Assembly (NCBI GenBank): GCA_005798445.1 | Contig: SYJG01000071.1 | Span: 3,452-67,451 of the forward strand | Source of the DNA: Planctomyces sp. | GTDB lineage: Bacteria > Planctomycetota > Planctomycetia > Planctomycetales > Planctomycetaceae | Direction of reading: 5' to 3' | Length of the DNA: 64,000 nt | Shown here: one piece after another, positions 13,706 to 64,000 of the stretch | Layout: the number at the start of each line of letters is the position of its first letter | Numbering within the stretch: position 1 is the stretch's first letter | Position numbers and translations under genes: made by a program | The notes under the pieces: model-generated | The model's input: the letters and a program-made list of their open reading frames with translations, nothing else | Database searches by the model: none | What the model was told of the DNA's origin: nothing

Positions 13706-13716
13706 GTTTGGCTCCC

Positions 13717-19621: not shown

Positions 19622-19685
19622 GAAGTGGTGATGGATGGTTTTGAGCCTCTTGAACTCACCCCTGGCTTTGTTGCCATTCCAACGC

Positions 19686-20117: not shown

Positions 20118-20120
20118 GAA

Positions 20121-27589: not shown

Positions 27590-27592
27590 GGC

Positions 27593-29649: not shown

Positions 29650-29823
29650 CGTGGAAGAGGGGAAATGACCAGACCGAGCCTACCAGAACTAGAGTGGTTG
29701 GCAACCCGTTCCAACGACGTTCCATGTCGCGTGTCAAGAAGCCTCTTCGGTAAGTTCGCGACCATTGCCACGACGATTCCGATTGGCTTCCAGACTGCTG
29801 GCAGAACCGTGGACTGGTGAGGT

Positions 29824-30050: not shown

Positions 30051-30124
30051 GCTCACCGTGACAGTGTTTCAGGCGGAAGGGGGACGCCATTGTCTGTCCT
30101 TCTCTACAGGATCTCCGTCGTGTC

Positions 30125-31245
30125 ACTCGGCTACGCCGCCTTGCGTTCAAATGACTGCACGAGACCACCGACATACGAGCGAATTTCGATCTTGTTTCGT
30201 GACAGTTTCCGAACTGTCTTCGGACGCCTCCCGCGAATCGGTGGTAGGTGTCCGCGTTCCATGTGACTGCGTCGCGTGTTGTAGTAGTCCACCCACGACG
30301 CGACGACGTAATCCAAGTGCCGTTTGCCAAAAAGTATGAATCTGAACAAGCACTCAAATTTTATGGATTGCACGAACCTTTCGACTCTGCCGTTCAAATT
30401 GGGCGAAGCAATGGGAAGCACGTTTGTTCGGACACCTTTTGCTTTCAAAGTCGCTGTGAATTCCTTCGTGAACTTCGTGTCGCGGTCGTGCATCACGATC
30501 GACGGCTTCTTCTCACGATTCATCGTTTGATCGAGGAATTGTTTCGTCTGATCGACCACCCATGCCGAGTTGGGGTGCTTGGTGGATGATGTCACGATCA
30601 CTTCGCGCGTCGAGAGGCACAAGAACGCCATCAAATACATCTCTTGAAGACCTTTGATGGTCACCGTCTTGACCGAGAAAAAGTCCACCGCCCAAAGCGT
30701 CTCCGCATGTCGTTTGACGAAGTTGTCCCAGCAATCGGAAGTCTTATCCGGTCCAGGTTTGATCCCTTCTTCTTTCAGGATGTTGCGCACGGTTTGCCGA
30801 CTGATCCCCTTGATCCCCAATTTTCTTAACTCGCCAATGATGCGGGTGTAGCCGAACGAAGTCGTGGTCGCGATTTCAACCACCAGTTCGCGGACCTCTC
30901 GCGGCTTGCGTTGGCCACCCTTCGGATTCCGCTTCTTCTTTCCGGATTCCGCTTCGCGGCACCAACGATAGAACGTCTGGGGAGAGACGATCGTGAGCAA
31001 CTCTTCGATGGCCTGACCGAGTGCCTTGCCGAGCTTCAACAATCGTGAGCGCTCATCCGGTCTTGTATGGACCTGACCCGGAATCCGCGCTCGGAGTATC
31101 TTGTTCTCTTCCTTGAGGAATTCGACGTATCGAGCCAGTTCGTTGTTGCTCGCTGATGCGATCAACGCCAGCAGTGGGTGGAAGATTTTGACGGTCATGC
31201 TATTTTCGCAACTCGTTATTGAAGTGGAGTCTGACACATTCGTTG
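30125..31245 (-). mobile_element. IS element carrying transposase copy 2 (ends approximate)
   Basis: Same reasoning as for copy 1. Same orientation as copy 1. Confidence 0.45.
30131..31198 (-). CDS. DDE (rve / integrase-core) transposase, IS481/IS3-like, copy 2 (diverged paralogue of copy 1)
   Basis: Collinear with copy 1 from MTVKIFHPLLALIASASNNEL to YVGGLVQSFERKAA, roughly 80-85% identical by eye. ATG 31198 corresponds to the copy 1 start. The track ORF begins at a GTG (31237). Confidence 0.85.
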   Translation of the reverse strand: MTVKIFHPLLALIASASNNELARYVEFLKEENKILRARIPGQVHTRPDERSRLLKLGKALGQAIEELLTIVSPQTFYRWCREAESGKKKRNPKGGQRKPREVRELVVEIATTTSFGYTRIIGELRKLGIKGISRQTVRNILKEEGIKPGPDKTSDCWDNFVKRHAETLWAVDFFSVKTVTIKGLQEMYLMAFLCLSTREVIVTSSTKHPNSAWVVDQTKQFLDQTMNREKKPSIVMHDRDTKFTKEFTATLKAKGVRTNVLPIASPNLNGRVERFVQSIKFECLFRFILFGKRHLDYVVASWVDYYNTRRSHMERGHLPPIRGRRPKTVRKLSRNKIEIRSYVGGLVQSFERKAA

Positions 31246-31560
31246 AACAGCGCTATGTCGCTGAAATCTCCCGTCTCACGGCTCCGAATCCAACGCTCTC
31301 CATGCAGAGCATCGGTGTTTTGAAATCCGCTCACTGTGTGGCACGGAATGGGCACAGAATCCTCTAGAAACGGCCACAAATTACACTAAAATATCCAAAA
31401 GTGAGTTGGTCGAAGAGTTGTGTTATCGCAGTCTGTAAGCGCATGACTGGCTTCAACTAAGAAGCATCATTCGACCCCGCAATTGCTCTCGAAACCGGCG
31501 GCCTACGGAACCGAAGGGGGTCCGCCAATCGCGTCGGCGACTTGTTCGGGAACCGAAGGC

Positions 31561-34500
31561 TCATAGGCGGTCAATCCAACTTGGTAGTCCGGCGAAGACG
31601 TCATCCAGCACAGTGTCATCGACTTGTCGATTGATCGTGTCCGAGGCGTCCTTTTGGAAGGCATCGGTGCCCGCGTTTCCCGTCAGGGTGTCGATGCCAT
31701 CCGCTCCAGGTAGATCGAGACGCGAGCCGCCAATCAGCGTGTCGTTGCCGACACCACCAAATAGCATGTCGTTTCCTCGGCCGCCAATCAAAATGACGGG
31801 GATCGAGGCCAAAGTCGCGTCGAGTTTGTTCGCGGTGTCGCCACCGATCAGAACGATCCGCTCGATGTTTGTTGGAGTATCGGTGCCCGTGATCGCCGAG
31901 ACGATCTTCGCGCCGGTGACGACGAAGTTCGTCGCGGCTTTCTCAAACACATCATCAAAGCCGCTGCCACCGTCCAGCACATCTGTGCCGGGGCCGCCGG
32001 AGATTACATCGTTGTCATCTCCGCCAAGCACGCTGTCCGCTTTCGATCCGCCCAACAAAGTGTCGTTACCTGCGTTACCCACCAGGCTGACGGGGATCGC
32101 TGACTTCCGAGCGTCGAACAGGTTGTCACCCGCTCCACCGGCGAGTAGGAGTTGCTCGATCCCCGCCCAGCGATCGATACCGAGATCCGGCGACGTCAAT
32201 TGTGATGTGGACGTCGTGTCGATCAGGATGTTGGTTTCGCCGAATTCATCGACTCGGTCGAGCGTTCCCGCGCGACCATCGAGCGTGTCGTTTCCGACTC
32301 CGCCACGTAGCGTGTCATTACCGCCGCCACCCGTCAGGATGTCGTTGCCCGCCAAGCCGTCGAAGCAGACGCGGCCCGCGAACGGATTGACGGTGGCCAC
32401 CGAGAGTTGGTCCGCTTCCGCAGTTCCCCACAGTTTGACCACCTCAATCGTGCTTGCTGTCAGATTGTCCGTTCCCAGGCCGATCACGAGAGCGGTGAGG
32501 CCGACCTGACCGATGCTGATGCCGGTTTCAGAGACCGTATCGATGCCGGCACCACCGTTGTAGATGTCATCGCCGAGTGCTCCTGTGAAGGAGTCGTCGC
32601 CATCCCCGCCAATGAATGAGTCGTTGCCCGAACCACCCAGCAGCGTGTCGTTGCCCGCTAGACCTTGCAGTGTCGTCTTGCCCGACCAGTTGCGTGCATC
32701 CATGCGGTTGTTGAATGTCGCGATGCCGCTCAAGAAGGCGTTCTCGATGCCGACGAGCGCACTGGTTCCCGTGCCGATGAACAACGTCCCGTTCGTCGCG
32801 TCACCACCGAGCGTGACGTTCAAGTCCGCGAACTCTTGCAGGAGATCGTTCGTGCCGATTCCACCGTCAAGCGTATTGTTGCCGATGCCTCCGCCGAGCA
32901 CGTCGTCGTCGCCGCCTCCGTTCAGAACATCGTTGCCGCTACCGCCCAACAGCGTGTCATTCTTCATTCCGCCCGAAAGTGTCACGTTGCCAGTAAACTT
33001 CGAGGCATCCAACTTGTTGGCCAGGACGTCGCCACCGGTCAGCGACGCTTCGTTGATGCTCGTCAGCGTGTCGATACCCAAACCGGCCAAGGTCGTGTCG
33101 GTCAATGTGATCAGCGGCACATCTCCGACTTCGATGAGCCGATCGGTTCCGCTTCCGCCGTCGAGAATGTCATTCCCCAGCCCGCCTGTCAGGAAGTCGT
33201 TGCCGATACCTCCCTGCAAATTGTCGGCGAGGACACCGCCCAGCAGTGTGTCGTCACCATCACCACCGACCAAAGAAACGGGCAGCGCGGACTTGCGAGC
33301 ATCAAACAGATTGTTGCCCGAGCCGCCGGTCAGTTGCACGAGTTCCACGCCGGACCATTGATCGGAACCCAGACCGGCAGAGATCAACGGTAGGGTTGTG
33401 GACGTGTCGATCACCACATCGGTGTCCGTCGTCTCTTCGACTCGATCCGTGCCGAGTCCGCCAATGAGCACATCGTCTCCCGCGCCACCGATCAGCGTGT
33501 CGTTGAGCGTGCCTCCGCTGAGTTGATCGCTCCCGTCCAAGCCGGCAAAGCAGACCGTTCCTTTGAAGGCGGTCGCACCCGTAGTGACAACCGACATCTG
33601 ATCGTTACCGGACGTTCCAACCAGCTTGACCACTTCAACTGTGTTCGCGATGAGCGAGTCCGTGCCAAGTCCAATCACCAACGCTGTGAGTCCAACACTG
33701 CCGATATTGATGCCAATTTCGCTGATGGTGTCTTTGTCAGCGCCGCCGTTGTAAGTGTCGTTGCCCAAGCCTCCCGTCAGCGAATCGAGTCCCGCTCCGC
33801 CATCAAGCGAATCGTTGCCAGAACCGCCCAGCAACGTGTCGTTGCCGGCCAGTCCTTGCAGTGTTGATCGGCCGGTCCAATTGCGAGCATCCATCACGTT
33901 GTGGAACGTACCAACGCCCGCCGTCAACTGAGCCTGTTCGATGCCGAGCAGCGAATTCGTGCCGACACCGTTCAGCGTCGCGGTGAATTCGTTGCCGCTG
34001 AGCACAAAGTTCACATCACCGATGTCTTGGACGATATCGTTCGCACCATCACCGCCATCGAGTGTGTTGCTCCCGATTCCGCCGTTGAGCAGATCGTCGT
34101 CGAGACCGCCGAAGAGTTGATCGTTGCCCTTCCCCCCAAGCAACGTGTCATTCTTCGATCCGCCAGACAGCGTGACCGGTCCGCTGAACTTCGACGCATC
34201 TAGCTTGTTCGCCAGAGTGTCGCCGCCGGTCAACGAGGCCTCCTCAATGTTCGAGAGTTTGTCCGCGCCGAGTCCGGCGAGGGTTGTGTCGGTCAACGTG
34301 ATCAACGCCACGTCACCGGTTTCAATTAACCGGTCGCGACCACCGACTCCGCCGTTGAGCAAGTCGTCTCCCAGACCGCCGGCGATCGTCTCATTGAAGT
34401 CGTCGGAGCCGGTGATCGTGTCGTTGCCTTTACCGCCGGACAGCGAAACTCGTTGCAGATGCGAGTACAGACTGGGTGAAAGACCGGTCAATTTGATGGA

Positions 34501-58500: not shown

Positions 58501-61500
58501 GGGATTCCAGATGCGATTGCCGTTGCTGTCCAAGGCGTCGAAATCGAGCTGCACTTGGGCGTCAAACGTGAAGTTGCCGCTATTCTCGGTCAGCCGCGTG
58601 ATGAGATGATGTCCGGAGAAGACACCACCCGGCTCGGTGACGAAGTCGACGTTGATCTGATCGTTCTTGTTCGAGCCACCGTAGTACCAGACTTTGTCCG
58701 TGGACTTGGCATACGCCTTCCACTCATCGCCAGCGAGCCCGCCATCGGCTCCGGTGAAGAGTTCGCCACGACGGTTGTAAAGCCGATCGACCCGGCTGGG
58801 GTCCGTGTTCTCGTTTCCGTACAGAAAATCGAGACCGGTGCCGCCATACAATGAGTCCTGCACCGTGCCGCCGAGCACGCGATTGAGTCCGGTATCCTCC
58901 AGAGTTCGCGCCGGCAAAGCCGTGCCGTCGATCAGTCCATCGGGAATCGGATTGCCCGCCTCATCAAACGCTCCGGTGAAGTCTCCGTTGTCGTCGTAGA
59001 ACAATCCCGCTTGATCGACGAACACACCGAATTGCGTGTCGCCCGCCGGCTGCGGATCAATCGACCACGCGAACAGCGCGTTCGTGCCCTGGCCACCCAA
59101 CAGGTCGTCATGTCCTTGTCCGCCGTAGAGGATGTCGTGATCGCCGAGGTTGCCCTGTCCGGTGCCGCCGTCGCCCCAAAGTTGATCGTCGCCGGCGAAT
59201 CCGTAGATCACGTCGCTGCCGAAGCCGCCATCCAACCGATCGCGGCTGTTCGTACCGCGCATGGTGTCGTTACCCGGCCCGCCGTCGATCACGCCCACCC
59301 AATCGTCCGTCCGATCGGTGATAGACGTGAAGTCGAGTGCGTCAGTCCCCGTCACGAAGGAGATGTTGTCGTTGCCGCCCAATCCCGAGATGCGGAATTG
59401 TTCGACCAGCGGACGGCCATGCGGGTTGAGGCTATCGGGAGCAATCCGCCAAGTGGCAAACAGATTTCGCACCACACCGGGACCGGCCTGATAATCCACT
59501 TGCAAATCCGTCGCGACGGCGAGCCGTTGTTTCAACGTGATGGTGTCATTCGCCGTCGTTCCTTCGACGAGCAGAATGTCCGTCGCACTATCATCGGCTT
59601 TGTCTCGGAGCATTTCGTTGCCGCCATGCCCATCGAAGGCGTCATACGATGGAGCCGAGTAATCGGGCGACACATCCAGCACGAACAGGTCAATGCCGCT
59701 GCCACCGTACTCAATGTCGTCACCGTTCTGGCCTTCGATCCAATCGGAATCGGTGCCGCCCCACATCAAATCGTTGCCGCCGCCGCCGTACAACTTGTCC
59801 TCACCGCTGCCGCCAAACATCGAGTCGGCCGCGCCGGTCAAATCCGCGCTATCGTTGGTCGCGTAGCCCGGCCCGCGCAGATAGTCGCCAAAGATCGAAT
59901 CGTTACCGGTCTCGCCAAAGAACAAGTCCTGGCGCAGATTGCCGTACAGCCAATCGCCGCCGCCGCCGCCATGCAGTTCATCACCCTTTTCAATCGCGTT
60001 GGCAGCCACATCGAAACTCGGTGCGTAGGCCCACAAGTAGTCGATGCCCGGACCGCCCCAGAGCCGTTGCCCGACTTGACTGCCGCTCGCATCGCCCGCG
60101 TCGGCGAACAAATTGTCGGCTCCCGAATCTCCATAGAGCTGATCGATCCCCGCGTTGCCGCGCAACACATCGTCATTGGCTCCGCCGCGCACAACGTCGT
60201 CGCCGGAACCGCCATGCACTTCATCGTTCCCCGCGCCACCATCGACGTAGTCCTGATCGCTTCCGCCATCGACTAAGTCCGCTTCGCCGCCGCCGAAGAC
60301 GAAGTCGATATTCGCGCCGCCATCAATCGTGTCTTTCCCGTCGTTGATGTCGCCATCCAGCGACAACCCCGCGACGATCACCGGCACGATCCGCGGTAGG
60401 ACGTAGCCGTTGAGGCTCATCGGTTCTGAATCCGGCGCGGCCGTCGCCACCGTGAAGAGGTCCAAACTCGAAAGGTCAAAGAACGCACGACCAAACGTGG
60501 CCGTGCCGCCCCACAGGATGTCGCTCTCCGTGTCCCCTTGCAGCAAATCGTTACCGGTTCCTCCCTGCAACAAATCGATTCCCGTCCCACCGTTGAGCGT
60601 GTCTTTCCCGGCGTCGCCAAATCCATCGTCGTTCCCATCGCCACCGGCGATCGAATCATCATCCTCGCCGCCAAACAGAACATCGTTCCCGGCGTCACCA
60701 GCCAGCACATCGTTGCCTTGCTCGCCCTGCAACTCGTCGGCCCCGTCGTCGCCATGAATGACGTCGTTCTCCGTGCCGCCGAACAGCACGTCAGTTCCCG
60801 CTCCACCATTCAGCGTGTCGTTGCCCGCTTCACCGAATACCTGGTCGGTGTCGTCGCCTCCGACAATGGAATCGTTGTCCGCGCCACCATGCAGTTCGTC
60901 CTGGCCGTTGTCGCCGAACAGTGTGTCGGTTCCCGCATCGCCGAATACGAGGTCATTGCCACCGAATCCATGCAGTTCATCGTTGTCGTTGCCGCCATAG
61001 ATCGAATCCCGCGAAGCGCCGGCGGTGATCATGTCATTGCCCAAACCGCCGTCGTACCGAGTGGAGTGAGTCCCCGAGTTGCCGTTCATCGAGTCCGCGC
61101 CGGCATCGCCGAACACCAGCAGCTCGGCGCTGGCCATTTGCATCGCCGTCACGAACAACTGGTCGTCGCCCGGATTGCCGTGGACCTCGGTCGCAACGTT
61201 GGACGCAACACCGGAAACCGTGAACGTGTCGCCCGCCAAGCCCATGTAAACGATCAGTTTTTCAATCGTTTGATATGACGCGCCCCCGGCGCTTTGTCCC
61301 AAGCCGAAGAGCGTCGTGCCGGTCAGCGAGCCGGTGTTTGCCAGACCGTCGCCCGAATCATCGGCAACGAGCGTGTCGGTTCCCGAACCGCCGTTGACGA
61401 TGATCGCCGCACGCATTTGATTGAGCGTTCCGCCCGCGTCGCTTTTCAGAGTGTCGCTTTCTGGCGTGGCCTTGCTGCCGAGAAACACCGCGTCATTCCC

Positions 61501-63993
61501 CGACTGCGCGAAGACCGTGTTGACCGTGCTCAAGCTCACGTTGGTGATGGCGATGACATCCGCGTCGTTCTCACCGTTGATTTCCGCCGAGGCACCAATC
61601 AGCCGGCCGGTCGGCGTGACAAAAATCACCGAGCCGACAGGATCAGCATTTCCGAAATCACCGCGAACAAAGATCGCGCTCGAAGCGGTGACAATGCCGG
61701 CGACCGTCACGTTGTCGCCCGCGCGCAACTCGACCACACCGCTGCCGGCGAACACTTGCTTGCCAGACCCCACCAACAAGTCCTCGCCCGCCGCCGCCGA
61801 TTCGGCAACGGTCAGCCAGACGGCTCCGCTGGTCGAAGTGACTTGATTGACCTTCAGATTCCCGGCCACTTCGGTGACGAAAATACTCTGCGCCGCGGTG
61901 GCGGTCAGCAGGCCCGTCGCGGTGCCTGTGTCGATTTCCAGATTGTCGAAGAACGATCCGATGCCGCCGGTCTGAGCCGTCAGCACGACGCTGTTCGAGG
62001 TGACGTCGCTCGCCGCGTCGTTGGTGGCATCGACGATCGAATGTTGAGCCGTCAGCGTCACCAGGCCGGCGGTCGAGGTGATGAATCCGACGCGCAAGTC
62101 TCCCTTCCGTTCGGTCAGCGTCACGTTTCCGTTGGTAGTCGCATCGACTTTGCCCGCACCGGTGAGGTCCGTTGTTCCTTCGACGTGAATCGTAGTCGCG
62201 CCGTAATCGCCCGTGATCGCGATGTTGTTTCCTGCCTGAAGCAATCCGAACGCATAGTTGGCGGTGTCGCGCGTTGAACGGCCCGTCGATCCAACTCCGC
62301 GGTTCTCAGGACCGGCAGCGGTCGTGGCAATCGTCGTCGCGCCAAAGCCGGTTCGATTGACTTGAGAGGGTACGCCGACGAGCGGAACTTCGGAAGCCTG
62401 TGTGGTCGGCAGAAGCACGAGTTCGATGTTTCGCCCGGCGATGATCGAATCGCCTCGCACCGTTGTGTCGGTCACGCTGGGGTGCATAATTTCGCCGGTG
62501 AGGCTCATCCGCACATCGAATTTCGCGTTCGCTCGCAGTCCTTCGGGTTGATCCAGGTTGTGCAGCAATTGGGCTTTGAACAAGTTGCCGACACCGGGGT
62601 CTCCGACCGATCCGCCATGCGCGGTGACTTCGAGTGAATTCGAACGGACGAGTCCCGCGCCGCTCGACAGGATGTTGCCGCCGTTGTTGATGAACCGCGA
62701 CTCGCCGAGCGGATTGTCGATCAGGCCCTGCACAATGATGTCGCCCGACCCGGCCTGGACGAATTCCAGCAGCGTGGGCTGCACACCACTCCGCGTCGCC
62801 GTGAAGCTGAAGCCGCTGGCGTTGTCGGCCGCAACGTCCACGGACGGATTGACCAAACTGACGGTGCCGAGAGTGCCAAGCACCAGATCCTTCGTGGAAT
62901 GATTGATAACTGTGCCGAAGCCAAACGTGGGAGCAAATTCAAAATTCGAATTGCCAATCAGCGTGCTCGTGATGAATCGAGCCGATTGCCCGGAGTTGTC
63001 CCAACTATTCACTTTGAGTTGGGTTCCCAAATCCTCGTACATCACGCCGCTGTTGACGGTCGGCGACCCATCCGCTGCGATTTCGAGTCTCGGTCCCGCA
63101 TGCAACAGCACGGCATTGGCATTGAACGTGATTTTGCGCTCGCCGGTGAAGTTGCCGTATTCGTCGTCGCCGCCAATATCCAGAAGTCCGCCGTCGGCGT
63201 CGGCATGTTTGAGGTAGCCGCTGGAATCGATCGTGGTTTCTACGATGAGGTTCTGGGTCGTGAATAATGCCCCGGCCTCGGCAGTCACGAACGCTTGCGT
63301 GAAGGTGTCGTTGTAGGCATCCGCATTCGTTTCACCGCCCAGACTGAAGGAATCGGCCTCGGCACTGGAGTTGGTCAGCAAATGAGGCAATCGCGCGGCC
63401 ACTTCGATGCGATCGGTGCCGGTGATCTTCGCGCCGGATTTCACAAGGACCTCAGTCGGGTCGTAAAAAGAGACGCGAGACTCGGCGGCGTTGATCGCGA
63501 TGAGCGCCGATCCATCTGCCGTGGCAATGGCTTCTTGGCGCAGGCTTGGCAGTTCGGCGACGATGGACACCGTCTTTCCGGTGATGTGAGCCAGTTGTTG
63601 AATCTCGACGGTGTTTGACGCGCGAACATCCGGGGCACCGAGAACGGTTGGAGCCGTCGCATCACCGGCGATTCCCAGACCGTGGCTATCGGCGATGGCT
63701 CGGGACACGGCGTCCACGTTCGACAACGCGCGCACTTGGACATCGTCGTGCGCCGCGATCCGCGCGCTTTGCCCGACACGGGTGTTAGTTTGGTACAAGA
63801 GCGAGGCATTAGCCGTCGCGAGAGCGACGTCGATGACACCACCACCGACGGCGCTGGCTGTCGGACGTGCGCCCAGCGACGTCGTCGCGGTGACGTTGAA
63901 GTTGCCGCCGGCGTTCAAATCCGCAAAGTTTCCGACGACAGCGGTGCTCTGACCCATCGACACGGTGGTCGCGACGGCGTCTTTGATTGCCAC
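31561..63993 (-). CDS. giant mosaic surface/secreted adhesin-like protein (>=10,810 aa in window, N-terminus probably outside the window)
   Basis: One uninterrupted reading frame of 32.4 kb. The first in-window codon called is a GTG, and the frame remains open to base 63999, so the gene likely continues upstream. Recognisable modules are listed as separate features. The stop is at 31561-31563. No lipobox, PEP-CTERM or sortase signal was seen at the C-terminus (...FAGLPSWIDRL). Confidence 0.9.
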   Translation of the reverse strand: MAIKDAVATTVSMGQSTAVVGNFADLNAGGNFNVTATTSLGARPTASAVGGGVIDVALATANASLLYQTNTRVGQSARIAAHDDVQVRALSNVDAVSRAIADSHGLGIAGDATAPTVLGAPDVRASNTVEIQQLAHITGKTVSIVAELPSLRQEAIATADGSALIAINAAESRVSFYDPTEVLVKSGAKITGTDRIEVAARLPHLLTNSSAEADSFSLGGETNADAYNDTFTQAFVTAEAGALFTTQNLIVETTIDSSGYLKHADADGGLLDIGGDDEYGNFTGERKITFNANAVLLHAGPRLEIAADGSPTVNSGVMYEDLGTQLKVNSWDNSGQSARFITSTLIGNSNFEFAPTFGFGTVINHSTKDLVLGTLGTVSLVNPSVDVAADNASGFSFTATRSGVQPTLLEFVQAGSGDIIVQGLIDNPLGESRFINNGGNILSSGAGLVRSNSLEVTAHGGSVGDPGVGNLFKAQLLHNLDQPEGLRANAKFDVRMSLTGEIMHPSVTDTTVRGDSIIAGRNIELVLLPTTQASEVPLVGVPSQVNRTGFGATTIATTAAGPENRGVGSTGRSTRDTANYAFGLLQAGNNIAITGDYGATTIHVEGTTDLTGAGKVDATTNGNVTLTERKGDLRVGFITSTAGLVTLTAQHSIVDATNDAASDVTSNSVVLTAQTGGIGSFFDNLEIDTGTATGLLTATAAQSIFVTEVAGNLKVNQVTSTSGAVWLTVAESAAAGEDLLVGSGKQVFAGSGVVELRAGDNVTVAGIVTASSAIFVRGDFGNADPVGSVIFVTPTGRLIGASAEINGENDADVIAITNVSLSTVNTVFAQSGNDAVFLGSKATPESDTLKSDAGGTLNQMRAAIIVNGGSGTDTLVADDSGDGLANTGSLTGTTLFGLGQSAGGASYQTIEKLIVYMGLAGDTFTVSGVASNVATEVHGNPGDDQLFVTAMQMASAELLVFGDAGADSMNGNSGTHSTRYDGGLGNDMITAGASRDSIYGGNDNDELHGFGGNDLVFGDAGTDTLFGDNGQDELHGGADNDSIVGGDDTDQVFGEAGNDTLNGGAGTDVLFGGTENDVIHGDDGADELQGEQGNDVLAGDAGNDVLFGGEDDDSIAGGDGNDDGFGDAGKDTLNGGTGIDLLQGGTGNDLLQGDTESDILWGGTATFGRAFFDLSSLDLFTVATAAPDSEPMSLNGYVLPRIVPVIVAGLSLDGDINDGKDTIDGGANIDFVFGGGEADLVDGGSDQDYVDGGAGNDEVHGGSGDDVVRGGANDDVLRGNAGIDQLYGDSGADNLFADAGDASGSQVGQRLWGGPGIDYLWAYAPSFDVAANAIEKGDELHGGGGGDWLYGNLRQDLFFGETGNDSIFGDYLRGPGYATNDSADLTGAADSMFGGSGEDKLYGGGGNDLMWGGTDSDWIEGQNGDDIEYGGSGIDLFVLDVSPDYSAPSYDAFDGHGGNEMLRDKADDSATDILLVEGTTANDTITLKQRLAVATDLQVDYQAGPGVVRNLFATWRIAPDSLNPHGRPLVEQFRISGLGGNDNISFVTGTDALDFTSITDRTDDWVGVIDGGPGNDTMRGTNSRDRLDGGFGSDVIYGFAGDDQLWGDGGTGQGNLGDHDILYGGQGHDDLLGGQGTNALFAWSIDPQPAGDTQFGVFVDQAGLFYDDNGDFTGAFDEAGNPIPDGLIDGTALPARTLEDTGLNRVLGGTVQDSLYGGTGLDFLYGNENTDPSRVDRLYNRRGELFTGADGGLAGDEWKAYAKSTDKVWYYGGSNKNDQINVDFVTEPGGVFSGHHLITRLTENSGNFTFDAQVQLDFDALDSNGNRIWNPTDNYFGVALTGSEAAPENGQLTGDATFVLHLDNNAPVSVTVTRNSTLASAGAEQPILANSSRRDLVADINAALKLAGLDQKVSARLAENAISLTRIDDPANANASQFFITNTNEAARSDLHFADDQASALGFVGSQGLTSLLPPEGDFLAIIVDALDGNDRVVVGPTVTKSVWVDAGRGDDRVEYTSGRPILTDLSETKQGFLNNDSQANAFNLNVEVANLLNGKQLFSGLTIDSPTDQDWYKFQLPRIPQVGDSLTVTSLSADDHMTLELRSGSSVLATADARGRINLNGLSLAANTTYYLRLQTTSIPTVYQLAFATPDFAEGVLNNNVQNRAYNLENIAGLGSVNELALHEGDVDWFQFQLAETGTAAEHIDVSVLSGNVVTVALANAAGQVLTALSTALTSTIRLPLKDLVKNTPYFVSVTSAGPVEYELLPAVSTAPGNGQLPLISTVFDTNLSSTLKILRRDILIGGEGNDVLKGGSWEDWIFGGAGNDVLTGGFDRQAQDLMFGGTGNDIFQLLPDDLPLLKTTARSLTAGGQQTYLPTFSDRFDGQAGEDQVLFLGGDLDLNGKPVPDNFAVRYNTLLHRYEATSRVWDTAAQDFVENAKTGGFQQQYAYFTATSVESYVIDTRAGDDEVHADPEYLIDGSEWGIDPEDRPQRAELSNLTIRGGDGNDRLLSGAEADTIDGGNGQDIIRGGGGDDVLLGDAGSDWIAGGPSAVPPDRYEIVSVAGRGGFNDKPELAALLLEDFSPLIATPVQSVAVKSLNFHYGDSGDWYVLPTPPALKKYGSEQSALLMANMISLQFVESRATEIAAAFRGPKLYLYAGQDTDSSSTLDPVPVEQFVGVPDYYFVHAVNLNTRQLTGSTPIVEADLFALKTQIAIFTLKVDDGFETQVTLSPKLRPAISDLISDLQTAVNVAVGLDNGQPKVLVNTVSVNDQRIGFWLITANGQKLAIGIPNTPQGAAATQSLHLSAQSFDVSPTTAGNNPAPEAMGEYTLTFQISQHLGETIDLPASAASVTVTATDSAERPVVIPVGDLNGDGFADFVSSIREQGSATLAHVSFGHGTLTPANLQRVEFTLQLPAPLTSGGSTLMPGDFNGDGIGDVAVGVSGTADAGVYIVLGRHEISGLINVTTNADVILTNASWIDQPLSFANAGRMTGPTDTADDLVIGDPQRDNYHGEVHILQGQTAWGQTGTIYSADFSNVTGTTADLDGFTLNNSPPNATYESGLWHLSEGRSSNGIGYTVTQPAYSTTDDNHSSIVSPGNKILDGFDDNFVQVTLPFAFQFYGQSHTTAFVSSNGLLTFVSGTTAYSNTALTTGLAPAAIAPLWDDWRTDLDELDAVYAATIDDPQHPGSSLYVIRWHLVQHFAGTGNPVEQTADVTFETVLSQFNQSIRFNYVDLQTGDVNVDNGQSATIGIKASGLEGTSFEQVKLNTGAAGYGVLIGSMRSVLFSNPALRPETSHSSPNSLYYGQEESPFGGGNYSTVKANRGTATSPVIDLTNVPADVDLELSFKYLLQTEGNLNAFDRAQVLISQDGGGFSPINVGAHINFSPSAAVKDGFGGVDGLAGAFHMAISPDGTSMYVTGNADNGLAVFTRNPTTGALTFQSVFKDGVGGVDGLAQAFNVAVSSDGKSVYATGYNDNALAIFSRNTTTGALTFQTVLKDGVGGIDGLAGAEGIALSPDGTSVYVTGANESAVAVFARNTTTGLLTLQSVIRDGVNGVDGLAADNEIAISPDGRSIYVTGFSDNAVAVFARDTMTGALTFQSVFKDGVGGVDGLAGTLGIAVSADGRSVYAAGRSDNGVAVFARDTMSGALTFQTVFKDGVNGVDGLSGAYDLTVSPDGRSVYVAGSFESALAVFDRDLTTGALTYQTALKDGVGGVNELSAAVGVTVSPDGRSVYVSGYSDNAVQSFSREVVIESTLRDQSTWLNKTVSLNAYRGSQIQVQFAFDTTDDVNNDFEGLYVDDLVVKSKPLNVSLSSTITFTDPGIPARLGLSVAGADLNGDGFSDLVVTRDDFDIGSVSVVNGAAALTGGTIGARASLVLPSDTLNNSQLLAVGDLDGDGRSDVVLTSESKTYVLFGGLAGPTLFNQLSFSSPGPWVALGDINGDGAADIGRVVPEVTHRLAEDGSSWQHVVGQVFLGGLESRQATWLDVPDIVVETGLPFYSAMLPAQPLFFGGVGNVNGDQLAGKPVADFAIADALGGQQTHVFTGRALQNNPITLPVASTVNRYLFTLAAPLGESTTSVRTGVALNDGAATHSLTQAVGVEGSITNDKISTGRNIGDFNGDRIPDMLIAGTTRSYVLFGPVDFDSVENIADRADVIVWQQDGTDEFGQFHTGLGNLADGQGDIDGDGRSDLVFASVTTLSNSGAIRLNVIYGAAVFPRHLDLSSVGTNFFSLPSESYKVPVQSDAKALILNWNGDAFADILVQGRHDRLTGGTVAFANLYAGTSAHGGSLAGNALSSNRRLGIFEDVSSTSEFVTRHDLDDINGDGLDDLAFSNGTKGVYVLLAPTPSASTITKSLTDTSNVRLAVGRNVSDVTPLGDLNRDGYADFAVSESGTSTGASGFDVQVYYGGTSIATTPQFTLKGSAADSGLAVVLSPVAGDFNGDGLFDLAILESTGQVVIGSPNDTVSRLIPSAGALTQLNSIKQIKPITGTVHVFWNAAHLSENVALSLANTRLSGGGIDGVIDSVMVNPSLDWNRDRVDDLVLGAALVDTFRNGVKQRAGRVYVIEGKQDNLLPSGLQPDILTNRTITGSGEYVVDRATGRPFVFQDEDNDDNGMLDTDFYTLAMGQNERWYRFTTLGDGLPGNYLSVGPEAPAPIRLAAQTNGVLSPSGATFDVSQVNDSQVIVGGSTPGTEVTVGVLEYDLASLLPYLNRTDDLSSVLTVDYSSNVTGFPVAFDSQNYTTGAIAVTSGVVTLGSGTWPDWATRGTLNINGRGYSIASRDSNTQLTLVDSSVTFAGGTTFTLVRPSNLPASLAAGYSATAVVGPELFYRAQLSDMSPTTLWRTDGTVVGTREVKSGITSYTDPTNLTAVANSLFFVSGGSLLEYVTTSDSVRTVSAVSGTVALREAGGRLFFTSANKLMSVLPTTGGTAPSAQEVRGPGSVSFTNVSSLTSVLLKPVAANPAVASIAFISTDIGVAGNAVWALPVATTLATTSQRLISGVAGNTLGNLTESALAGGSLYFTNGSELRLSNGATTSLVKNLGAALDQLTDVNGTLFFRSNNVLHVSDGTTAGTVELKTAEDASVVSPDQLTRFGNKLVFVAGTVVDRELWVFDLTTPSVKPAQLINLNRLRSGIIGSDPQSLVVAGNQLYFIATDGHAGRELWTSDGSADGTHIVSDLTAGSTDSILSGLTAVNGSLFVASSVTANNRTVTDLLTTIGSDLQTVKSQLGGTLTVTALSSEADLLISAADGLSIGTVTSVALSARSGVVTITLSAAVRDALNRGHTRLTLRLALPSAPGVSLSVRPSRAGAATLLGVPKPGAGDTALTVTPSGSGVLVDVYDANGGLRALSHSIVDLRHFDAGTYFVRVHTPQSDTPNPSALPFALTFAAPFAGQTRPIYEEPDHDELRGGDGNDFLQGNSDLDRLFGEEGKDTFRADPFEVRDQSAGQGESSTLLTPPTGEQGPSLKRTLDPVVTFADPSVRLVVAQTLGRTFTKRFDGSLQIAQPIVTSELAEMTRLDLSTRGVTSLSGLEDAINLHELNLNNNHVVDLKPIEKGRKLSGDNVGAASGAAELRTLSFDNNSIRSLAPLLLLHHLQAISADFNPVTDVTPLAELTDLQFLSIDQPPFELFDTTFSGDGKLVVPIGSFEDYGNSIAIQPDGKIVLAGYSYNISTSSDDFAAVRLNADGSLDTSFGNAGKLVIPVGAGSATDIANSVVIQPDGKIVLAGYTNSGGFGDFAIVRLQSNGSLDTSFDGDGKLIVSISSGVKAEAVQSVLVQPDGKLVLAGSSYNGTNDDIAVVRLNVDGSLDNSFDNDGKRIVTIGSNSSDRANSVVRQPDGKLVVAGSSDNDFATARLNSDGSLDTSFGIGGTLGIPIGNSLDLAYSLALQQDGKLVLAGSSNNGLKDDFAVVRLNGDGTLDTSFSGNGKLTLGVRMQSDIAYSVVVQPDGKLVLGGTSYNEGFDSGDVAIVRLNSDGSLDSKFDGDGKLVVSVANNSEEARSSVALQSDGKYVLVGNSFTLSGNADFAVTRLNAGGGLESIAGLRPLTQLEVLSLANNHVGDISPVAGMSKLEQLNLDNNHVGDIQTLTNVRLIDNGDAGYSESGTGWLGDTNMVAFDGDYRLHAPGTSTDTISWTFSGLLAGIYDVEMTWPQHDSRSAAAILDVSPTPVGATSPISLDQRFAPVGTMFDGKSWQNLRTIVTTSINNGTITVTLHVSSDGTVAADAVRLVRRDAPPFPNLVAVDLTGNPLNNAAHEVFLSRDVNGVGRLINNPITAVAFDTSSDRPTFGSQLATQTTTANQPLVVNLTDRPTDPSGHLAQLDFTTDIASVNNAAKFDVLASSDTLTLEAWTRIDAWSSDDFPVFEKWNFATHLGWAVRINKTTGLEFFNEAVFGSKTIVSSGYVPALGEWHHIAVSYSRSANQLQFVVDGKAVLSTAFNQDIASTSGTNLYLGYGFGPGASDKFAIGALDELRVWSSARTPQQIADNRSRRLTGAEGNLIGYWPIDEVSAAGLSDLTASPVPITFNNGAGLSPVLTSENLPVLSISTYTSALTATSDHEAVNVSTQALNFTDQVVVLPPAVAHLAQNLTTEFWLKSESRPDEQVVVSMTNEDSPNEFVISVLGTEVVIDDHGNDVVLFANKNLTDSNWHHVAVVRGAEDGIRLYVDGVLASSAVSPNSPLSVTGLAIGQDQDFPGGDYFSGEALYGQLDELRFWNRALSATEIQSNWQRRLSGTESGLVAYYTFDAPNGTVVTDLTGHYHGTLGDPVGGGEDSRPAAQYTPDTPLIVSEAGLLTRIQGQQLTVTPIGGFTGTARVMVTAHDDLSPFAPPFGRTATQTFHVAVGTDVLTGRVVMDLDGDALVESTEPGIEGRYVFDDLNGDGVRNGIEPASMTDAVGYYDFTAAAQVSSFASGFGVTALHLHLTTDFGSTDESAFGVAVQTNGRIVIAGATGIGGSDGFAIARYDATTTLDPTFDSDGKVTTTFATSSAEAHPIRDLNTVPNTADSSPVSFVQVGAISYFVATSSASGRELWKTDGTVGGNVLVKDIFPGPGNSSPSSLTNVNGTLFFRATDGVNGDELWKSDGTAAGTVLVKDIFPGAESSFLNKLTNVNGLLFFIANEPTNGMELWKSDGTLSGTVLVKNINPAVYSGYGGSFAYGSNPNNLTDVNGTLFFTATDGTKGYELWKSNGLAGDTVIVRDIRSGIPGSYPGNLTNVNGVLFFTANDGAKGVELWKSNGQDAGTVLVNDIFPNAPNSNPLYLTNVNGTLFFSANDGSNGIELWKSDGTTTSLVKNISGGAASSFPSSLTNVNGTLFFSAFELANGAELWKSDGSLSGTVLVKNINQASYSSYYGSYGFGSQPSNLTNINGTLFFTANDGTNGVELWKSDGIPNGAGTALVKNINTAEASGSSPNNLANFNGTLLFQANDGTNGPELWKSDGTTANTLLLKDINAGTNSASPSNPVNVNGTLFFAANDGTGDVELWKSDGTAAGTVRVKDIRAGGSSSPSNLTNINGTLFFAADNGTNGVELWKSDGTQNGTILVKNIFLDFYIGGPFSSSPNNLTNINGTLFFTANHGLYGTELWKSDGTLGGTVLVKNINSTFGASSSPSNLTNVNGSLLFTANDGTNGIELWKSDGTLGGTVLVKDIRPGIGYSGPLGSNPSRLTNVNGTLFFSATDSTGDTELWKSDGTLNGTVLVKNIRPGSSYYGGQLSSVPNKLTNVNGTLFFTATDSAGDNELWKSDGTLNGTVPVKDIRVVGSSAPDNLTNLNGTLFFTANDGTNGVELWKSDGTLGGTSLVKDIDTVLGNSSSPSNLININGTLYFAANNGANGIELWKSNGTPDGTVLVQDFNIGAGSSSSSNLVNVNGSLFFTAKSESFGTELHVLPGASTNPRFKLGGVVIQSDGKSVVAGRSWNGVNYDFALARYGIDGQLDTSFGSGGKVTTPFGSSDDFAASLALQTDGKLVVAGSTWNGTNYDFALARFNTNGTLDTAFDTDGKVTNTFSSTNDYITSVAIQTDGKIVVAGFSELNGTDDFAVARFTMTGALDITFDLDGKLTTAFGSSRDIAEEVLLQTDGRLIVLGSSWNGTNYDFAIARYLPTGVLDTTLDGDGKQTTAFGTGDDFASSGVLRSDGKLIVVGRYRAGENYDLAVARYNSNGGLDSTFDSDGKQVFAFSSGDDAAIDVALQSDGKIVVTGFTNSGGSGDFATARLNSDGTLESYVAEARVVDLGLDRRGTEGQSVTLTSIIRDPHPGGGALTFAWQVNGLPLAGQTTSSLAYTPADNGTYTVTLIATDPDDGNRTYSDPLKLVVSNVAPTVNLGADRVVNEGATVNFDLATIYSDAVAADTALNATSITWHVVASNGQTIADGHGQTFGFTANDQGSYIVTLSLADKDGAAATDTVLVTANNLAPTVTINGTPASSPEGIEISLTSTVADAGPNDSPTQIWTVTKRRAGQPAFVFASATTASLTFTPDDDGTYDVQLSVTDKDAASVTDSKSIIVTNVAPSRVDVGDDQTIDEGTMVTLSSPRTTDAEADLLKLTYQWDVVTSNGIVIPSASTPSLSFVASDNGTYTATLTVRDTDGGITSDTVVITANNVAPRDVTAGGPYFLTEGDSLILTSSATDPAGARDPLSRTWDVNGDGMFGDESIGTVTGSSLTLTWTQLGSLGLNNGSADGVTYNARVRVSDDDAGVTSSPTSAVTIYNAPPTPVINGATFDANGVSQPINEGTLITLSDPPIDPGADTFTYSWVNSRNGVIVASSTQESFTFTPTDDGVYDVDLTVADSDDGVGRLARQLNVVNVAPTLLPAPSQSVGLMQPFTLSGTFTDPGSDPWRGEVDFGDGSVLPLTIDAAARSFTVSYSYSTFPTHAPVVTIFDYDIGGMGGQGSRTYDVSVINPNHAPSVSTVANQETREDTPLTLAVTVGDLETAAGSLQVSVVSLDNATLFPADSFMLMGLTGDRSLRLTPAANRSGIANITVSVRDAGVDDTFGNTDDLTTTTTFQVTVSAVNDPPVRSAGSLGNLFVNEDAPATTLNLGAVDYAPGGGSDEAAQTLTYRVTALPSAVGDVVLNNGTTVVLLNTDYSLTELRGFQLRSLADATGSGLVTFEIRDSGGIANGGVNLLTESLMISVSGTNDAPAGVPDMATAVEAGGVSNMTLGSNATGNVLSNDTDVDTGDTKTVSAVSFGAITGTLGAPLPGSFGSLSLNADGSFFYVVNNDHASVQALRTSSTSLSETFDYTVRDAAGETSAATLVVAITGANDAPVAANNNFTATQNTLLSATSVLTNDSDLDDTSLSAVLVTGPAHGLLMLRGNGTFDYSPFTDYIGPDSFTYTANDGALNSNVATVMLSIIEANEAPTISSIADVFVDEDTTRITLPVTVNDRDTPAGSLLVSATSSNTALIPQSVIGLEGTGSDRLLTLRPVADQFGETMVTITVEDEGGVVRSTSFIVHVDAVNDAPSFAAGSSQMVDEDAGSQSVPNWATAISTGPANEAGQSVDFVVTTNNDSFFSTLPMVAANGTLTFTPAPNANGLAVITVRIHDNGGSSNGGVDLSSPQTFNITVNAVNDVPSFTVGANQIILEDAGSRTVTNWATGISAGPADETAQALNFLVSTNNDSLFSVLPAVSANGTLTYTTFENANGTATVTVRLHDDAGGANTSDPQSFTILVTPVNDAPSFTKGADQSAISGTPQTVLNWVLAASTGPADEAGQSLIEYVVTTDNDAYFSAVPQISPTGTLSYSIASSATGSAVVTVRVRDSGGIDDGGNNTSSAQVFQITSLIAVHYASTDAKVVTATVVAGRLQVKIGGVLQPDVDPALIGSLTISGGTAADSIKLTGLSPSLYSHLQRVSLSGGKGNDTITGSDDFNETIAGGLGDDLLNGGVGGRDRLIETGDVALITLTDTTLAGLGADKLSNIEEASLTGGDTLANKLDASKFSGPVTLSGGSKNDTLLGGKGNDQLFGGLDDDLLNGGIGSNTLDGGDGANDIVQDIGDVNFVLSGNEFTATLNGVGTNSLLGIEQAQLTAGVGTFHNVMDARNWTGRSTLQGLAGNDTLLGGSGNDSLDGGAGLDSLTGGLGNDTYNGGADKDTISEIGINIGSVGLTALVIGLGTDSLIANTVEVVKLVGTSGNDQMSVVTTGATAFKGTVCFAGLDGSDQLSGGTLNDTLIGGAGDDVLIGGLGTDRVEETTDTDVVIDTSTTLPLISAGLGSDQWSGVELVQLTGGSGNNLFDARKSALPVSLVGGDGDDTLLGGVLADNLQGGIGNDFLTGGLGNDILDGGSGTDRLIEVGDVPLITLTDTTLAGLGIDTLTSINEASLTGGDVLANKLDASKFTGNVTLSGGMKNDTLLGGSGNDVLNGGGDDDVLGGGIGNNTLDGGIGTNDLLQEFADLNVTLGGDATNGTLFIGTGTSALVGIENAFLSGIATFNNRMDARNWSGKTTLQGLAGNDTLLGGSGNDSFIGGDGDDSFTGALGDDIYNGGAGIDTVSETGISIGQVGLTALVIGLGTDNLTASTIEVVKLWGTAEADQLSVATVNPFAGRVCFDGLAGNDILTGGGGNDTLRGGVGNDTLDGRAGTLDRVDEFGETNILIDTTSTSQLTSPDLGIDRWAGIEQLLLAGGAGDNLFDARKSAIPVSLVGNAGNDTLLGGSKADSVLGGDDNDVISGGPGTDVLDGGSGFDDVFEKAATNFVVTGAKIVSAITGTDTPTNIERIVLIGGDTANKLDATLASIPVILIGGRGNDMLFGGVGNDTLIGGSRLDLPGADGIDTLTGNAGTDAFQKDASDTINRQVDDTVLDDVFAGLPSWIDRL
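31600..34470 (-). repeat. C-terminal RTX-like GGxGxD region organised as a ~1.19-kb tandem duplication (2 full units plus a partial third)
   Basis: Unit starts: GRDRLIETGDVALITLTDTTLAGLG (about 34340), GTDRLIEVGDVPLITLTDTTLAGLG (about 33146) and GFDDVFEKAATNFVVTG (about 31960). The units are collinear and mostly identical by eye. Confidence 0.8.
34650..37300 (-). repeat. cadherin-like / VCBS-type Ig modules
   Basis: Modules delimited by (V/T)ND(A/P)P boundaries. Examples: NVLSNDTDVDTGDTKTVSAV (VCBS-type), VLTNDSDLDDTSLSAVLV...FDYSP...GPDSFTYTANDG, and three similar VNDAPSF...PNWAT.IS.GPA.E..Q...F modules. Confidence 0.65.
37300..39290 (-). repeat. ~7 PKD-like Ig-fold modules
   Basis: Modules of about 90 aa recur, ending ...DDGTYxVxLxVxDxDxxxxxDxxxIxVxNVAPT, e.g. 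TYTVTLIATDPDDGNRTYSDPLKLVVSNVAPTV. Confidence 0.7.
39330..40320 (-). repeat. delta-60-type repeats, array 2 (~6 units)
   Basis: Unit: G.LDT.FD.DGK.T..F....D.A.S.ALQ.DGK(L/I)VV.G.S.NG.NYDFA(L/I)AR(Y/F). Confidence 0.75.
40330..42960 (-). repeat. 18 tandem ELWxxDG(T) repeats (~49 aa each)
   Basis: Unit: LTNVNGTLFF.A.DG.NG.ELWKSDGT..GTVLVKDI.PG...S.P. I counted 18 ELW(K/H) cores, from GRELWKTDGT (about 42900) to GTELHVLPG (about 40340). Confidence 0.9.
43760..45035 (-). other. two LamG / concanavalin-A-like lectin domains
   Basis: TLEAWTRID...GEWHHIAVSY...LQFVVDGK...GALDELRVWSSARTPQQI and TTEFWLKSE...NWHHVAVVRG...IRLYVDGV...GQLDELRFWNRALSATEIQ are classic Laminin_G_3 signatures. Confidence 0.8.
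45660..45890 (-). repeat. leucine-rich repeats
   Basis: LTQLEVLSLANNHVGDISPVAGMSKLEQLNLDNNHVGDIQTL. Confidence 0.6.
45895..47090 (-). repeat. delta-60-type repeats, array 1 (~7 units)
   Basis: Unit: DGSLDTSFG..GK..I.......D.A.SV.(I/V)QPDGK(I/L)VLAG.S......DFA(I/V)VRLN. Confidence 0.75.
47100..47470 (-). repeat. leucine-rich repeats (internalin-like)
   Basis: LHELNLNNNHVVDLKPI, LRTLSFDNNSIRSLAPL, LQAISADFNPVTDVTPLAELTDLQFLSID. Confidence 0.6.
50290..52560 (-). repeat. long FG-GAP/VCBS (integrin-alpha-like) repeat region
   Basis: More than 12 motifs of the form GD(L/F/I)(N/D)GDG..D, e.g. DLNGDGFSDLVV, GDLDGDGRSDVVL, GDINGDGAADIG, GDFNGDRIPDMLI, GDIDGDGRSDLVF, DDINGDGLDDLAF, GDLNRDGYADFAV, GDFNGDGLFDLAI. 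Confidence 0.8.
52745..53820 (-). repeat. seven tandem ~47-aa repeats (lactonase-type 7-bladed beta-propeller-like)
   Basis: The unit (V/I)SPDG(R/T)SVYV(T/A)G..DNAVAVFARDT.TGALTFQ.VFKDGV.GVDGLAG.. repeats 7 times with a 141-nt period. Confidence 0.75.
54200..54710 (-). other. NIDO (nidogen-like) type domain
   Basis: VTLPFAFQFYGQSHTTAFVSSNGLLTF...IAPLWDDWRTD...VIRW...ATIGIKASG follows the NIDO signature (fpFyG..y..lyVstNGlisF ... iaPfwaD ... vGf). Confidence 0.5.
54930..55410 (-). repeat. FG-GAP/VCBS-type repeats
   Basis: GDLNGDGFADFV, GDFNGDGIGDVAVG and DDLVIGDP motifs. Confidence 0.6.
59000..61250 (-). repeat. RTX (GGxGxD nonapeptide) calcium-binding repeat block 1
   Basis: Dozens of consecutive nonapeptides, e.g. 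GGNDNDELHGFGGNDLVFGDAGTDTLFGDNGQDELHGGADNDSIVGGDDTD. Confidence 0.85.
61250..63993 (-). other. G/T/A/V-rich beta-helix-like region of the giant protein
   Basis: Degenerate repeats such as GNFNVTATTSLGA and VVELRAGDNVTVAGIVTASSAIFVRGD, typical of haemagglutinin/autotransporter-type parallel beta-helices. Assignment by eye only. Confidence 0.3.
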
Positions 63994-64000
63994 GAAACCA

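Follow-up and report, generated by a model that had tools for sequence, protein, structure and literature searches.

An uninterrupted 16,253-codon gene, very probably of an uncultured planctomycete, that encodes a mosaic of RTX, propeller and cadherin-like modules

The subject of this report is a giant gene on the minus strand of a 64,000 bp stretch of contig SYJG01000071.1 (assembly GCA_005798445.1). This whole stretch is referred to as the window. The gene takes up 50.7% of it and runs past its right edge, which is the side of the protein N-terminus:

31561..63999, minus strand: giant gene, C-terminal 10,812 codons and stop codon (open frame; full length from gene calls on four near-identical contigs)

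A six-frame scan found one minus-strand frame that stays open for 10,812 codons between 63999 and 31564 and is closed by a stop codon at 31561-31563. The runner-up among the open stretches of the window has 1,222 codons. Over the span of the giant frame the other two minus-strand frames contain 396 and 269 stops, which excludes that the frame is open by chance. Amino acid positions are numbered on the visible part of the protein, where residue i corresponds to window position 63999-3(i-1). A preliminary description of this DNA had reported an uninterrupted frame of at least 10,810 codons, filling half of the window and still open at its edge, and the scan agrees on each of these points. Of the span given there, 31561-63993, the stop end holds; the other end is corrected, as 63993 is merely the first GTG and the frame is open to 63999.

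Four other assemblies match the window: the NCBI metagenome-assembled genomes (MAGs) GCA_005779075.1 (contig SXKK01000189.1) and GCA_005799905.1 (contig SYFL01000830.1), and two ENA assemblies. Their contigs (53.5 kb) were retrieved by an exact look-up of the 190-aa protein encoded at 29077-29649. Exact matches to ten small proteins of the window were all present in the protein collection, each with a longest contig of 84,085 bp. Compared with window positions 27046-39649 (12.6 kb), the four contigs are collinear and 99.94-99.99% identical, with zero indels and one amino acid change in the last 8.1 kb of the giant gene. On all four the gene is called as a single product of 16,253 aa, and its full length is 16,253 codons or 48.76 kb. 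The end coordinates place the start codon 281-313 nt from the contig ends, which makes this the full gene; on SXKK01000189.1 it spans about 313-49,074. The window thus shows the C-terminal 66.5% of the protein, and the N-terminal 5,441 aa lie beyond its right edge.

The preliminary description regarded genes of this kind as prone to mis-assembly because of internal repeats. That concern hardly applies to this gene. In a self-BLAST no internal DNA repeat exceeds 71.5% identity, which leaves nothing for an assembler to collapse; together with the four collinear assemblies and their identical product length, this makes mis-assembly unlikely. All four assemblies break within a 1,220-aa tetratricopeptide repeat (TPR) gene (23725-27387; breaks at 27046-27118) and again 281-313 nt upstream of the giant-gene start, and these shared breaks at both ends suggest repeats or strain variation there. 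No further transposase copy was found upstream of the giant gene. A query with aa 1-500 gave no match in GTDB genomes or JGI metagenomes, and an exact 47-mer from the window edge was not found in viral contigs. Plasmid searches returned no DNA match, and their protein matches were to generic RTX proteins alone.

The visible part has a mass of 1,118 kDa, and about 1.68 MDa is extrapolated for the whole protein. It is strongly acidic (pI 4.19; 1,252 Asp plus Glu versus 545 Lys plus Arg) and contains two cysteines in 10,812 aa. Its domains were mapped by scanning overlapping 1,000-aa pieces against Pfam and NCBIfam, and repeats were counted with hidden Markov models (HMMs) iterated locally from single seeds. 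Domain matches or homologues were found over most of the frame. From the N-terminal to the C-terminal side of the visible part, the features are:

61810..63999, minus strand: family-less, all-beta, solenoid-like module, aa 1-730; homologues lie deep inside many huge proteins
58813..61407, minus strand: first RTX (HemolysinCabind) block, aa 865-1729 (Pfam E=3.6e-62, 13-15 stretches; strict nonapeptide count; local HMM)
56347..57186, minus strand: second RTX block, aa 2272-2551 (Pfam, nonapeptide count, local HMM)
55144..55386, minus strand: FG-GAP repeats, aa 2872-2952 (Pfam FG-GAP, 32.6 bits; FG-GAP_3)
54220..54717, minus strand: NIDO-like module, sub-threshold, aa ~3095-3260 (Pfam NIDO at aa 3130-3187, 20.7 bits; cut-off 25)
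52717..53817, minus strand: seven-bladed beta-propeller of Lactonase/SGL type, seven 53-aa blades, aa 3395-3761 (Pfam Lactonase E=9e-40; seven HMM copies)
52576..52818, minus strand: jelly-roll of InhA-like MAM / choice-of-anchor-J type, C-terminal half, aa 3728-3808, immediately following the propeller (29.1 bits, cut-off 26.9; profile positions 85-163 of 191)
50611..52506, minus strand: FG-GAP / FG-GAP_3 repeats (integrin-alpha-type blades), aa 3832-4463 (Pfam)
48406..49506, minus strand: three degenerate ELWxxDGT repeats, aa 4832-5198 (NCBIfam TIGR04534, 76-84 bits, copy at aa 5153-5199; local HMM)
just upstream of the first leucine-rich repeat (LRR) block, minus strand: lone RTX unit, aa 5404-5442 (local HMM)
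47113..47481, minus strand: LRR block, aa 5507-5629 (Pfam LRR_4; partial NCBIfam internalin matches far under their cut-offs)
45856..47025, minus strand: delta-60 (DUF5122) array of seven copies, aa 5659-6048 (TIGR02608 E=1.6e-104; Pfam DUF5122 E=3e-71)
45295..45846, minus strand: LRR pair (about aa 6052-6094; LRR_4, 42 bits), then a Golvesin_C-type domain (aa 6097-6235; 44.5 bits against a cut-off of 31.6)
43816..44976, minus strand: two LamG (Laminin_G_3 / pentraxin-like) domains, aa 6342-6489 and 6576-6728 (Pfam E=2.8e-45, two stretches)
ahead of the 18-copy ELWxxDGT array, minus strand: lone delta-60 copy, aa 6939-6984 (local HMM)
40318..42939, minus strand: 18 tandem ELWxxDGT repeats, aa 7021-7894 (TIGR04534, 1035 bits, 17 stretches; local HMM, 18 copies)
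39319..40299, minus strand: second delta-60 array, six copies, aa 7901-8227 (Pfam, NCBIfam, local HMM)
37618..39303, minus strand: six PKD domains, aa 8233-8794 (PKD_4 E=5e-29; K319L-like_PKD; six HMM copies)
34900..37299, minus strand: about 8-10 Ig-like modules of Big_9, Cadherin_4, Cadherin_5, VCBS and tandem-95 type, aa ~8901-9700 (Big_9 E=2.7e-39; Cadherin_4 E=1.9e-30; NF012211 E=9e-41)
31708..34551, minus strand: C-terminal RTX array, aa 9817-10764 (Pfam E=7.8e-57 over the last 812 aa; nine HMM copies)
31564..31707, minus strand: acidic non-RTX tail of 48 aa, aa 10765-10812, ending ...DDVFAGLPSWIDRL-COOH; candidate C-terminal export or sorting signal

The open frame and the domain matches along it confirm that this is one real, intact gene with a mosaic of modules, as the preliminary description had held. 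Its module list was borne out for the three or more RTX blocks (aa ~865-1729, 2272-2551, 5404-5442 and 9817-10764), the FG-GAP/VCBS modules (both Pfam FG-GAP regions), the degenerate and canonical ELWxxDG arrays (three and 18 copies), the LRRs (aa 5507-5629 and 6033-6105), the two LamG domains, the cadherin-like/VCBS Ig modules (aa ~8900-9700) and the C-terminal RTX-like region, an array of some 950 aa that reaches nearly to the C-terminus. The two delta-60 arrays were also recovered and, with the lone copy, bring that repeat to 14 copies. Other entries needed adjustment. The propeller has the seven blades claimed, at a period of 53 aa by the local HMM instead of 47 aa, and the PKD domains number six by HMM instead of about seven. 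The term 'eukaryote-like' for the adhesion modules is apt only at the superfamily level; the families that match are bacterial ones (Cadherin_4/5, Big_9, Laminin_G_3, FG-GAP_3 and PKD_4).

Two further entries stand in part. The NIDO-like module is weakly supported: its Pfam score is below the cut-off, and BLASTP of aa 3101-3168 against the NIDO-bearing relative P0230 gave E=4e-5, with the motifs FxFYG...NG..TF and IAPLWDD. In the case of the split jelly-roll, the C-terminal half after the propeller was found; the MAM profile did not detect an N-terminal half, and joining the candidate half to the other left the MAM score unraised. A single-sequence AlphaFold2 (AF2) model of aa 3290-3830 resolved the propeller alone, as repeated four-strand blades with a predicted local distance difference test score (pLDDT) of 55-89, and did not resolve the flanking putative jelly-roll halves. 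Sequence searches of the PDB with the dark segments aa 2950-3400 and 4470-5150 were without match. The ELWxxDGT copies share 64-72% DNA identity. The PKD and Big_9/cadherin-like modules make up less than 15% of the visible protein and are divergent, not near-identical.

The N-terminal module (aa 1-730) has no counterpart among the Pfam and NCBIfam families. In an exhaustive HMMER search, aa 1-1000 retrieved 884 cluster representatives at E<=1e-3, many of them via the RTX part of the query; among the best 150 of these 884 relatives, 36 have alignments longer than 300 aa that begin within the first 150 residues of the query. In relatives of sufficient length the module is placed 1,000-2,900 aa from the N-terminus, a depth that fits the 5,441 aa missing upstream. 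Its AF2 model, from a 15-sequence alignment, is all strand with a pLDDT of 82. Foldseek found no significant match to this model in the PDB (E>=0.34), and the non-significant neighbours are beta-solenoids: tapirin, RsaA, the CyaA RTX domain, Ag43, MpAFP and HMW1/EtpA. One relative of the module ends in LAYTG followed by a hydrophobic stretch and basic residues. If this is read as a sortase-type end, the module would not be tied to a single export route.

The C-terminal RTX array consists of nine units of ~100 aa (aa 9874-10764), each with two or three nonapeptides and an insert of ~50 aa; ahead of them, aa 9817-9884 give a weaker, partial match. The solved relatives of these units in the PDB are solely substrates of type I secretion systems (T1SS), namely CyaA, LipA and serralysins. 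Sequence relatives of the unit are common in Gemmataceae, Pirellulales, Rhodopirellula and cyanobacteria. Homologues were collected up to 1.75 times the query length, a range outside which other giants and the protein itself fall; no relative retrieved has the overall architecture of the giant, and its N-terminal module and RTX parts alone were matched.

The array is followed by the 48-aa tail. A motif F-x(1-3)-LP-x-W-[IVL]-[DE], placed 2-3 residues from the C-terminus, occurs in nine of 120 relatives and in five further short fragments; a tail-profile search yielded fragments of 51-99 aa alone. The carriers are RTX proteins that are either planctomycete-named or found in planctomycete-type gene contexts. 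Such positional conservation is as expected for a terminal export or sorting signal. Five of them (P0203, P0240, P0244, P0249 and P0268) are complete proteins of ~1,030 aa that combine an M10 protease with RTX repeats and carry the tail motif of the giant, LP-x-W-[IV]-[DE]. All five begin with an Arg-rich, non-hydrophobic N-terminal leader ending [LF][EQ]xRxL[LP]A, and P0236, which begins with V, has the same leader.

The DNA very probably comes from an uncultured Planctomycetia bacterium. The window carries no rRNA or marker gene, and the assignment is drawn from the sequence relatives of a transposase encoded just downstream of the giant gene (30131-31237) and from near-identical named proteins. 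The transposase has 199 relatives in GTDB genomes (best, 87% amino acid identity), nearly all in Planctomyces, Schlesneria, Planctomicrobium and other Planctomycetaceae, often with several per contig. Proteins that share 90%-identity clusters with proteins of the window are named Planctomycetia bacterium at NCBI.

Taken as a whole, the data are best explained by an intact 16,253-codon planctomycete gene of the 'giant gene' class whose product is a Ca2+-binding surface or extracellular adhesin, or a matrix fibre; we assign this reading a probability of roughly 0.6. The protein is a strongly acidic, nearly Cys-free, all-beta mosaic that is predicted to bind Ca2+. A beta-solenoid stalk is followed by internal RTX beta-rolls and by beta-propellers (FG-GAP, seven-blade, ELWxxDGT and delta-60), then by LRR, LamG and Golvesin_C/MAM-like binding modules, a stalk of PKD and cadherin-like Ig modules, the 950-aa RTX array and the 48-aa tail. 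Such a protein could present many different ligand-binding modules at a presumed surface location, on a fibre that stiffens on extracellular Ca2+, and so serve adhesion if it is expressed. Export would be by a type I-like machinery of ATP-binding cassette (ABC), membrane fusion (MFP) and outer membrane (OMP) proteins that recognises the tail, with Ca2+-driven folding of the RTX array acting as a ratchet. Among the possible routes this C-terminus-first export is rated the likeliest, with a probability of about one half at best.

Several observations weigh against this reading. The complete small relatives with the same tail bear the Arg-rich leader, which classical T1SS substrates do without. 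No curated NCBIfam model of a T1SS C-terminal target matches the tail. No ABC, MFP or OMP gene occurs in the 31.5 kb downstream within the window, in agreement with the preliminary description, which had noted no T1SS genes there. Four related RTX genes from planctomycetes or metagenomes likewise have no transporter gene within 10 kb, and the same range around P0268 and P0249 is free of T1SS genes. The N-terminal third of the giant protein, where any retention module or signal peptide would be sited, is beyond the window, and hardly any open literature deals with T1SS in Planctomycetota. The heterogeneous mosaic is also unlike the long arrays of near-identical Ig extenders in characterised RTX adhesins. 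The earlier suggestion that RTX repeats close to the C-terminus indicate type I secretion therefore stands as to the position of the repeats; secretion by this route is plausible yet unproven, as no model matches and no transporters are nearby.

A tentative alternative keeps the giant surface protein as such but has its export or anchoring depend on the Arg-rich leader, the tail or both, in a route peculiar to planctomycetes, with RTX as a purely Ca2+-dependent structure. The leader is found in all the complete small M10 protease and RTX proteins with the same tail, T1SS genes are lacking within 10 kb of two of these proteins (P0268 and P0249) as well as near the giant gene, and RTX blocks are also located far from the C-terminus (aa 865-2551 and 5404). 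However, the role of the leader is only putative, the N-terminus of the giant itself lies outside the window, T1SS genes are frequently unlinked to their substrates, and an acidic, Cys-poor protein with C-terminal RTX repeats bears the classical signature of a T1SS substrate. A narrower version is doubtful: the giant would be the largest known cargo of a two-signal export or anchoring system that is specific to planctomycetes, not yet described and distinct from classical type I. The marker of such a system may be a tail of the form hydrophobic-F-x(1-3)-L-P-x-W-[IVL]-[DE]-x(1,2)-[LI]-COOH after RTX repeats, accompanied in the small members by the Arg-rich leader.

The protein might instead not be mainly an adhesin, serving as an S-layer-like or matrix scaffold or carrying an enzymatic Lactonase/SGL-type propeller that acts on extracellular substrates. 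The S-layer protein RsaA is among the weak structural neighbours of the N-terminal module, the propeller matches the Lactonase, SGL, Arylesterase and Str_synth families, and Golvesin_C and LamG suggest glycan binding. This is nevertheless improbable: the Foldseek matches are non-significant, the blades are recent internal duplicates (64-71% nucleotide identity) that cover part of the enzyme profiles, and diverse binding-type modules fit multivalent adhesion better. It is very improbable that faulty assembly created the frame, or that the frame is a relic next to a mobile island, decaying and unexpressed. The basis for this reading would be that all assemblies are short-read metagenomic ones from related samples, that insertion sequence (IS) elements begin 323 nt downstream and that frameshifts interrupt giant genes of a comparable kind in other MAGs; set against this are the stop-free frame beside stop-rich alternative frames, the agreement of four assemblies in product length without an indel in the overlap, the low identity of the repeats and recognisable domains all along the frame. 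Hardly tenable, finally, is a MARTX-like or polymorphic toxin or a two-partner secretion (TPS) exoprotein of the filamentous haemagglutinin type, to which the giant size, the RTX repeats, the beta-solenoid N-terminal module and the weak Foldseek neighbours HMW1 and EtpA (TPS domains) might point. The visible 10,812 aa contain no MARTX A/B/C repeats, cysteine protease domain, effector or toxin domain and no Haemagg_act or Fil_haemagg match, and the structural matches are non-significant. The RTX_toxin model NF033943 scored 150 bits against a cut-off of 1000, over generic RTX repeats only. Both readings were set aside for lack of their defining domains in the visible part; a TPS domain would be sited in the N-terminal part beyond the window. 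Another candidate of similar size, a cyanobacterial motility protein like SwmB, was dropped on taxonomic grounds alone, as these point to a planctomycete.

Planctomycetal giant genes and huge proteins are reportedly associated with the names of Reva and Tummler (2008). What places the gene in this class is an uninterrupted frame of more than 5 kb (more than 5,000 aa), a Planctomycetota host and domains of extracellular type rather than those of nonribosomal peptide or polyketide synthetases. All 29 planctomycete genomes surveyed by Kohn et al. (2016, PMC5177795) carry giant genes, often beside genomic islands; genes of more than 30 kb were found in Fuerstia (maximum 36,239 bp) and Gimesia maris only, with predicted roles in adhesion and carbohydrate binding. 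In proteins of more than 5,000 aa, Big_9, Cadherin_4/5 and HemolysinCabind occur mainly in Planctomycetota (Amaral and Devos 2024, PMC11573180). Proteins of at least 10,000 aa are frequently detected in this phylum, and 7,478 gap-free proteins of at least 10,624 aa are among the 10,000 longest in BV-BRC (West-Roberts et al., bioRxiv 10.1101/2023.11.21.568195). According to a 2025 review of the phylum, the functions of giant proteins are merely inferred (PMC12673574). The present gene shares with the described ones the phylum, the size above 30 kb, the island or mobile DNA in the neighbourhood, the Big_9, Cadherin_4/5, HemolysinCabind, FG-GAP, PKD and LamG domains and a predicted role at the surface, in adhesion and in calcium binding. 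At 48.8 kb it exceeds the maximum of the 2016 survey. It is a very large addition to the described planctomycete giant surface proteins, not a new kind of system.

The T1SS-secreted RTX adhesins LapA, MpIBP, SiiE and FrhA, as defined in bioRxiv 10.1101/2025.09.30.679566 with a quoted length range of 1,500-15,000 aa, are a second point of comparison. By this working definition the giant protein displays the beta-roll alone in full and the Ig-like extender in part. The beta-roll of such adhesins usually measures 120-450 aa, versus ~950 aa here, where internal RTX blocks are present too; their array of near-identical bacterial Ig-like extenders contrasts with mostly heterogeneous propellers and a solenoid. 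Their hosts are proteobacteria instead of a planctomycete, the 16,253 aa found here are above the quoted range, and no T1SS genes are adjacent. The giant protein may work like an RTX adhesin, although membership of that class is not established. Omnitrophota giants (up to 85,804 aa; bioRxiv 10.1101/2023.11.21.568195) are likewise MAG-derived, multi-domain and predicted to be extracellular. They are much larger and have N-terminal peptidase and transmembrane features, with predation as the proposed function, and none of those domains was seen here. The small planctomycete RTX proteins (P0203, P0249 and P0268) have the same type of ~100-aa RTX unit and the C-terminal motif F..LP.W[IV][DE]..-COOH; unlike the visible giant, they are of ~1,000 aa, with protease cargo and a visible Arg-rich leader.

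With 16,253 aa (~1.7 MDa) the product is among the larger bacterial proteins. With its reproducible assembly and divergent repeats, the gene lends itself better than most giant genes to the question whether such proteins are really produced. The tail, common to small and tractable RTX proteases, offers a practical handle on the barely studied export of planctomycete RTX proteins. The sole lead with some novelty is the conserved tail, which small relatives combine with an unusual leader at the N-terminus; otherwise a known pattern is confirmed.

Downstream of the giant gene the remainder of the window is rich in mobile elements, and the mobile island placed ~320 nt past the stop codon by the preliminary description corresponds to a transposase gene that ends 323 nt past it. 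No tRNA and no terminator-like site were found near the end of the giant gene. The neighbouring genes with family assignments include:

30131..31237, minus strand: IS481/IS3-like transposase gene (rve / rve_3 / HTH_32)
19686-20495: HigB/HigA pair
16651-17466: pol III delta'-like protein
14497-15735: DUF932/TIGR03299 gene
12061-12900: PD-(D/E)XK nuclease gene
9721-10800: short DnaE-like protein, finger/NTPase parts only
8651-9721: WYL regulator

A diverged second copy of the transposase gene is located at 20608-21669, with 78.5% nucleotide identity to the copy at 30131-31237. The cargo across 8651-20495, which also includes a gene for a GNAT protein, is plasmid-like or resembles that of an integrative and conjugative element. 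An IS21-family element at 5964-8492 has perfect inverted repeats of 32 bp at its ends (5964-5995 and 8461-8492) and encodes IstA (6850-8352, minus strand) and IstB (6071-7165, minus strand). Ten family-less open reading frames (ORFs) of the island gave no PHROG match. Also encoded downstream of the giant gene are two TPR proteins, a beta-CASP hydrolase and an agmatine-deiminase-like protein. Two overlapping family-less ORFs of 495 and 190 aa (4-nt overlap) occupy 27593-29649. They have counterparts of at least 90% identity in other Planctomycetia MAGs and follow the transposase in the same order in the four other assemblies of this population (loci L083-L086).

Giant RTX genes at two further loci, L081 (4153-13117) and L082 (3-11242), are each split by a frameshift into two overlapping frames, in L082 at a T-run. 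Both contigs are of metagenome or MAG origin and one of them is from Pirellulales; the cause is either sequencing error or real decay. A 225-aa gene at 13388-14065 of L081 matches Pfam HH_signal, the hedgehog N-terminal signalling domain; on this 179-kb metagenome contig it has a giant RTX/FG-GAP/PKD gene on either side.

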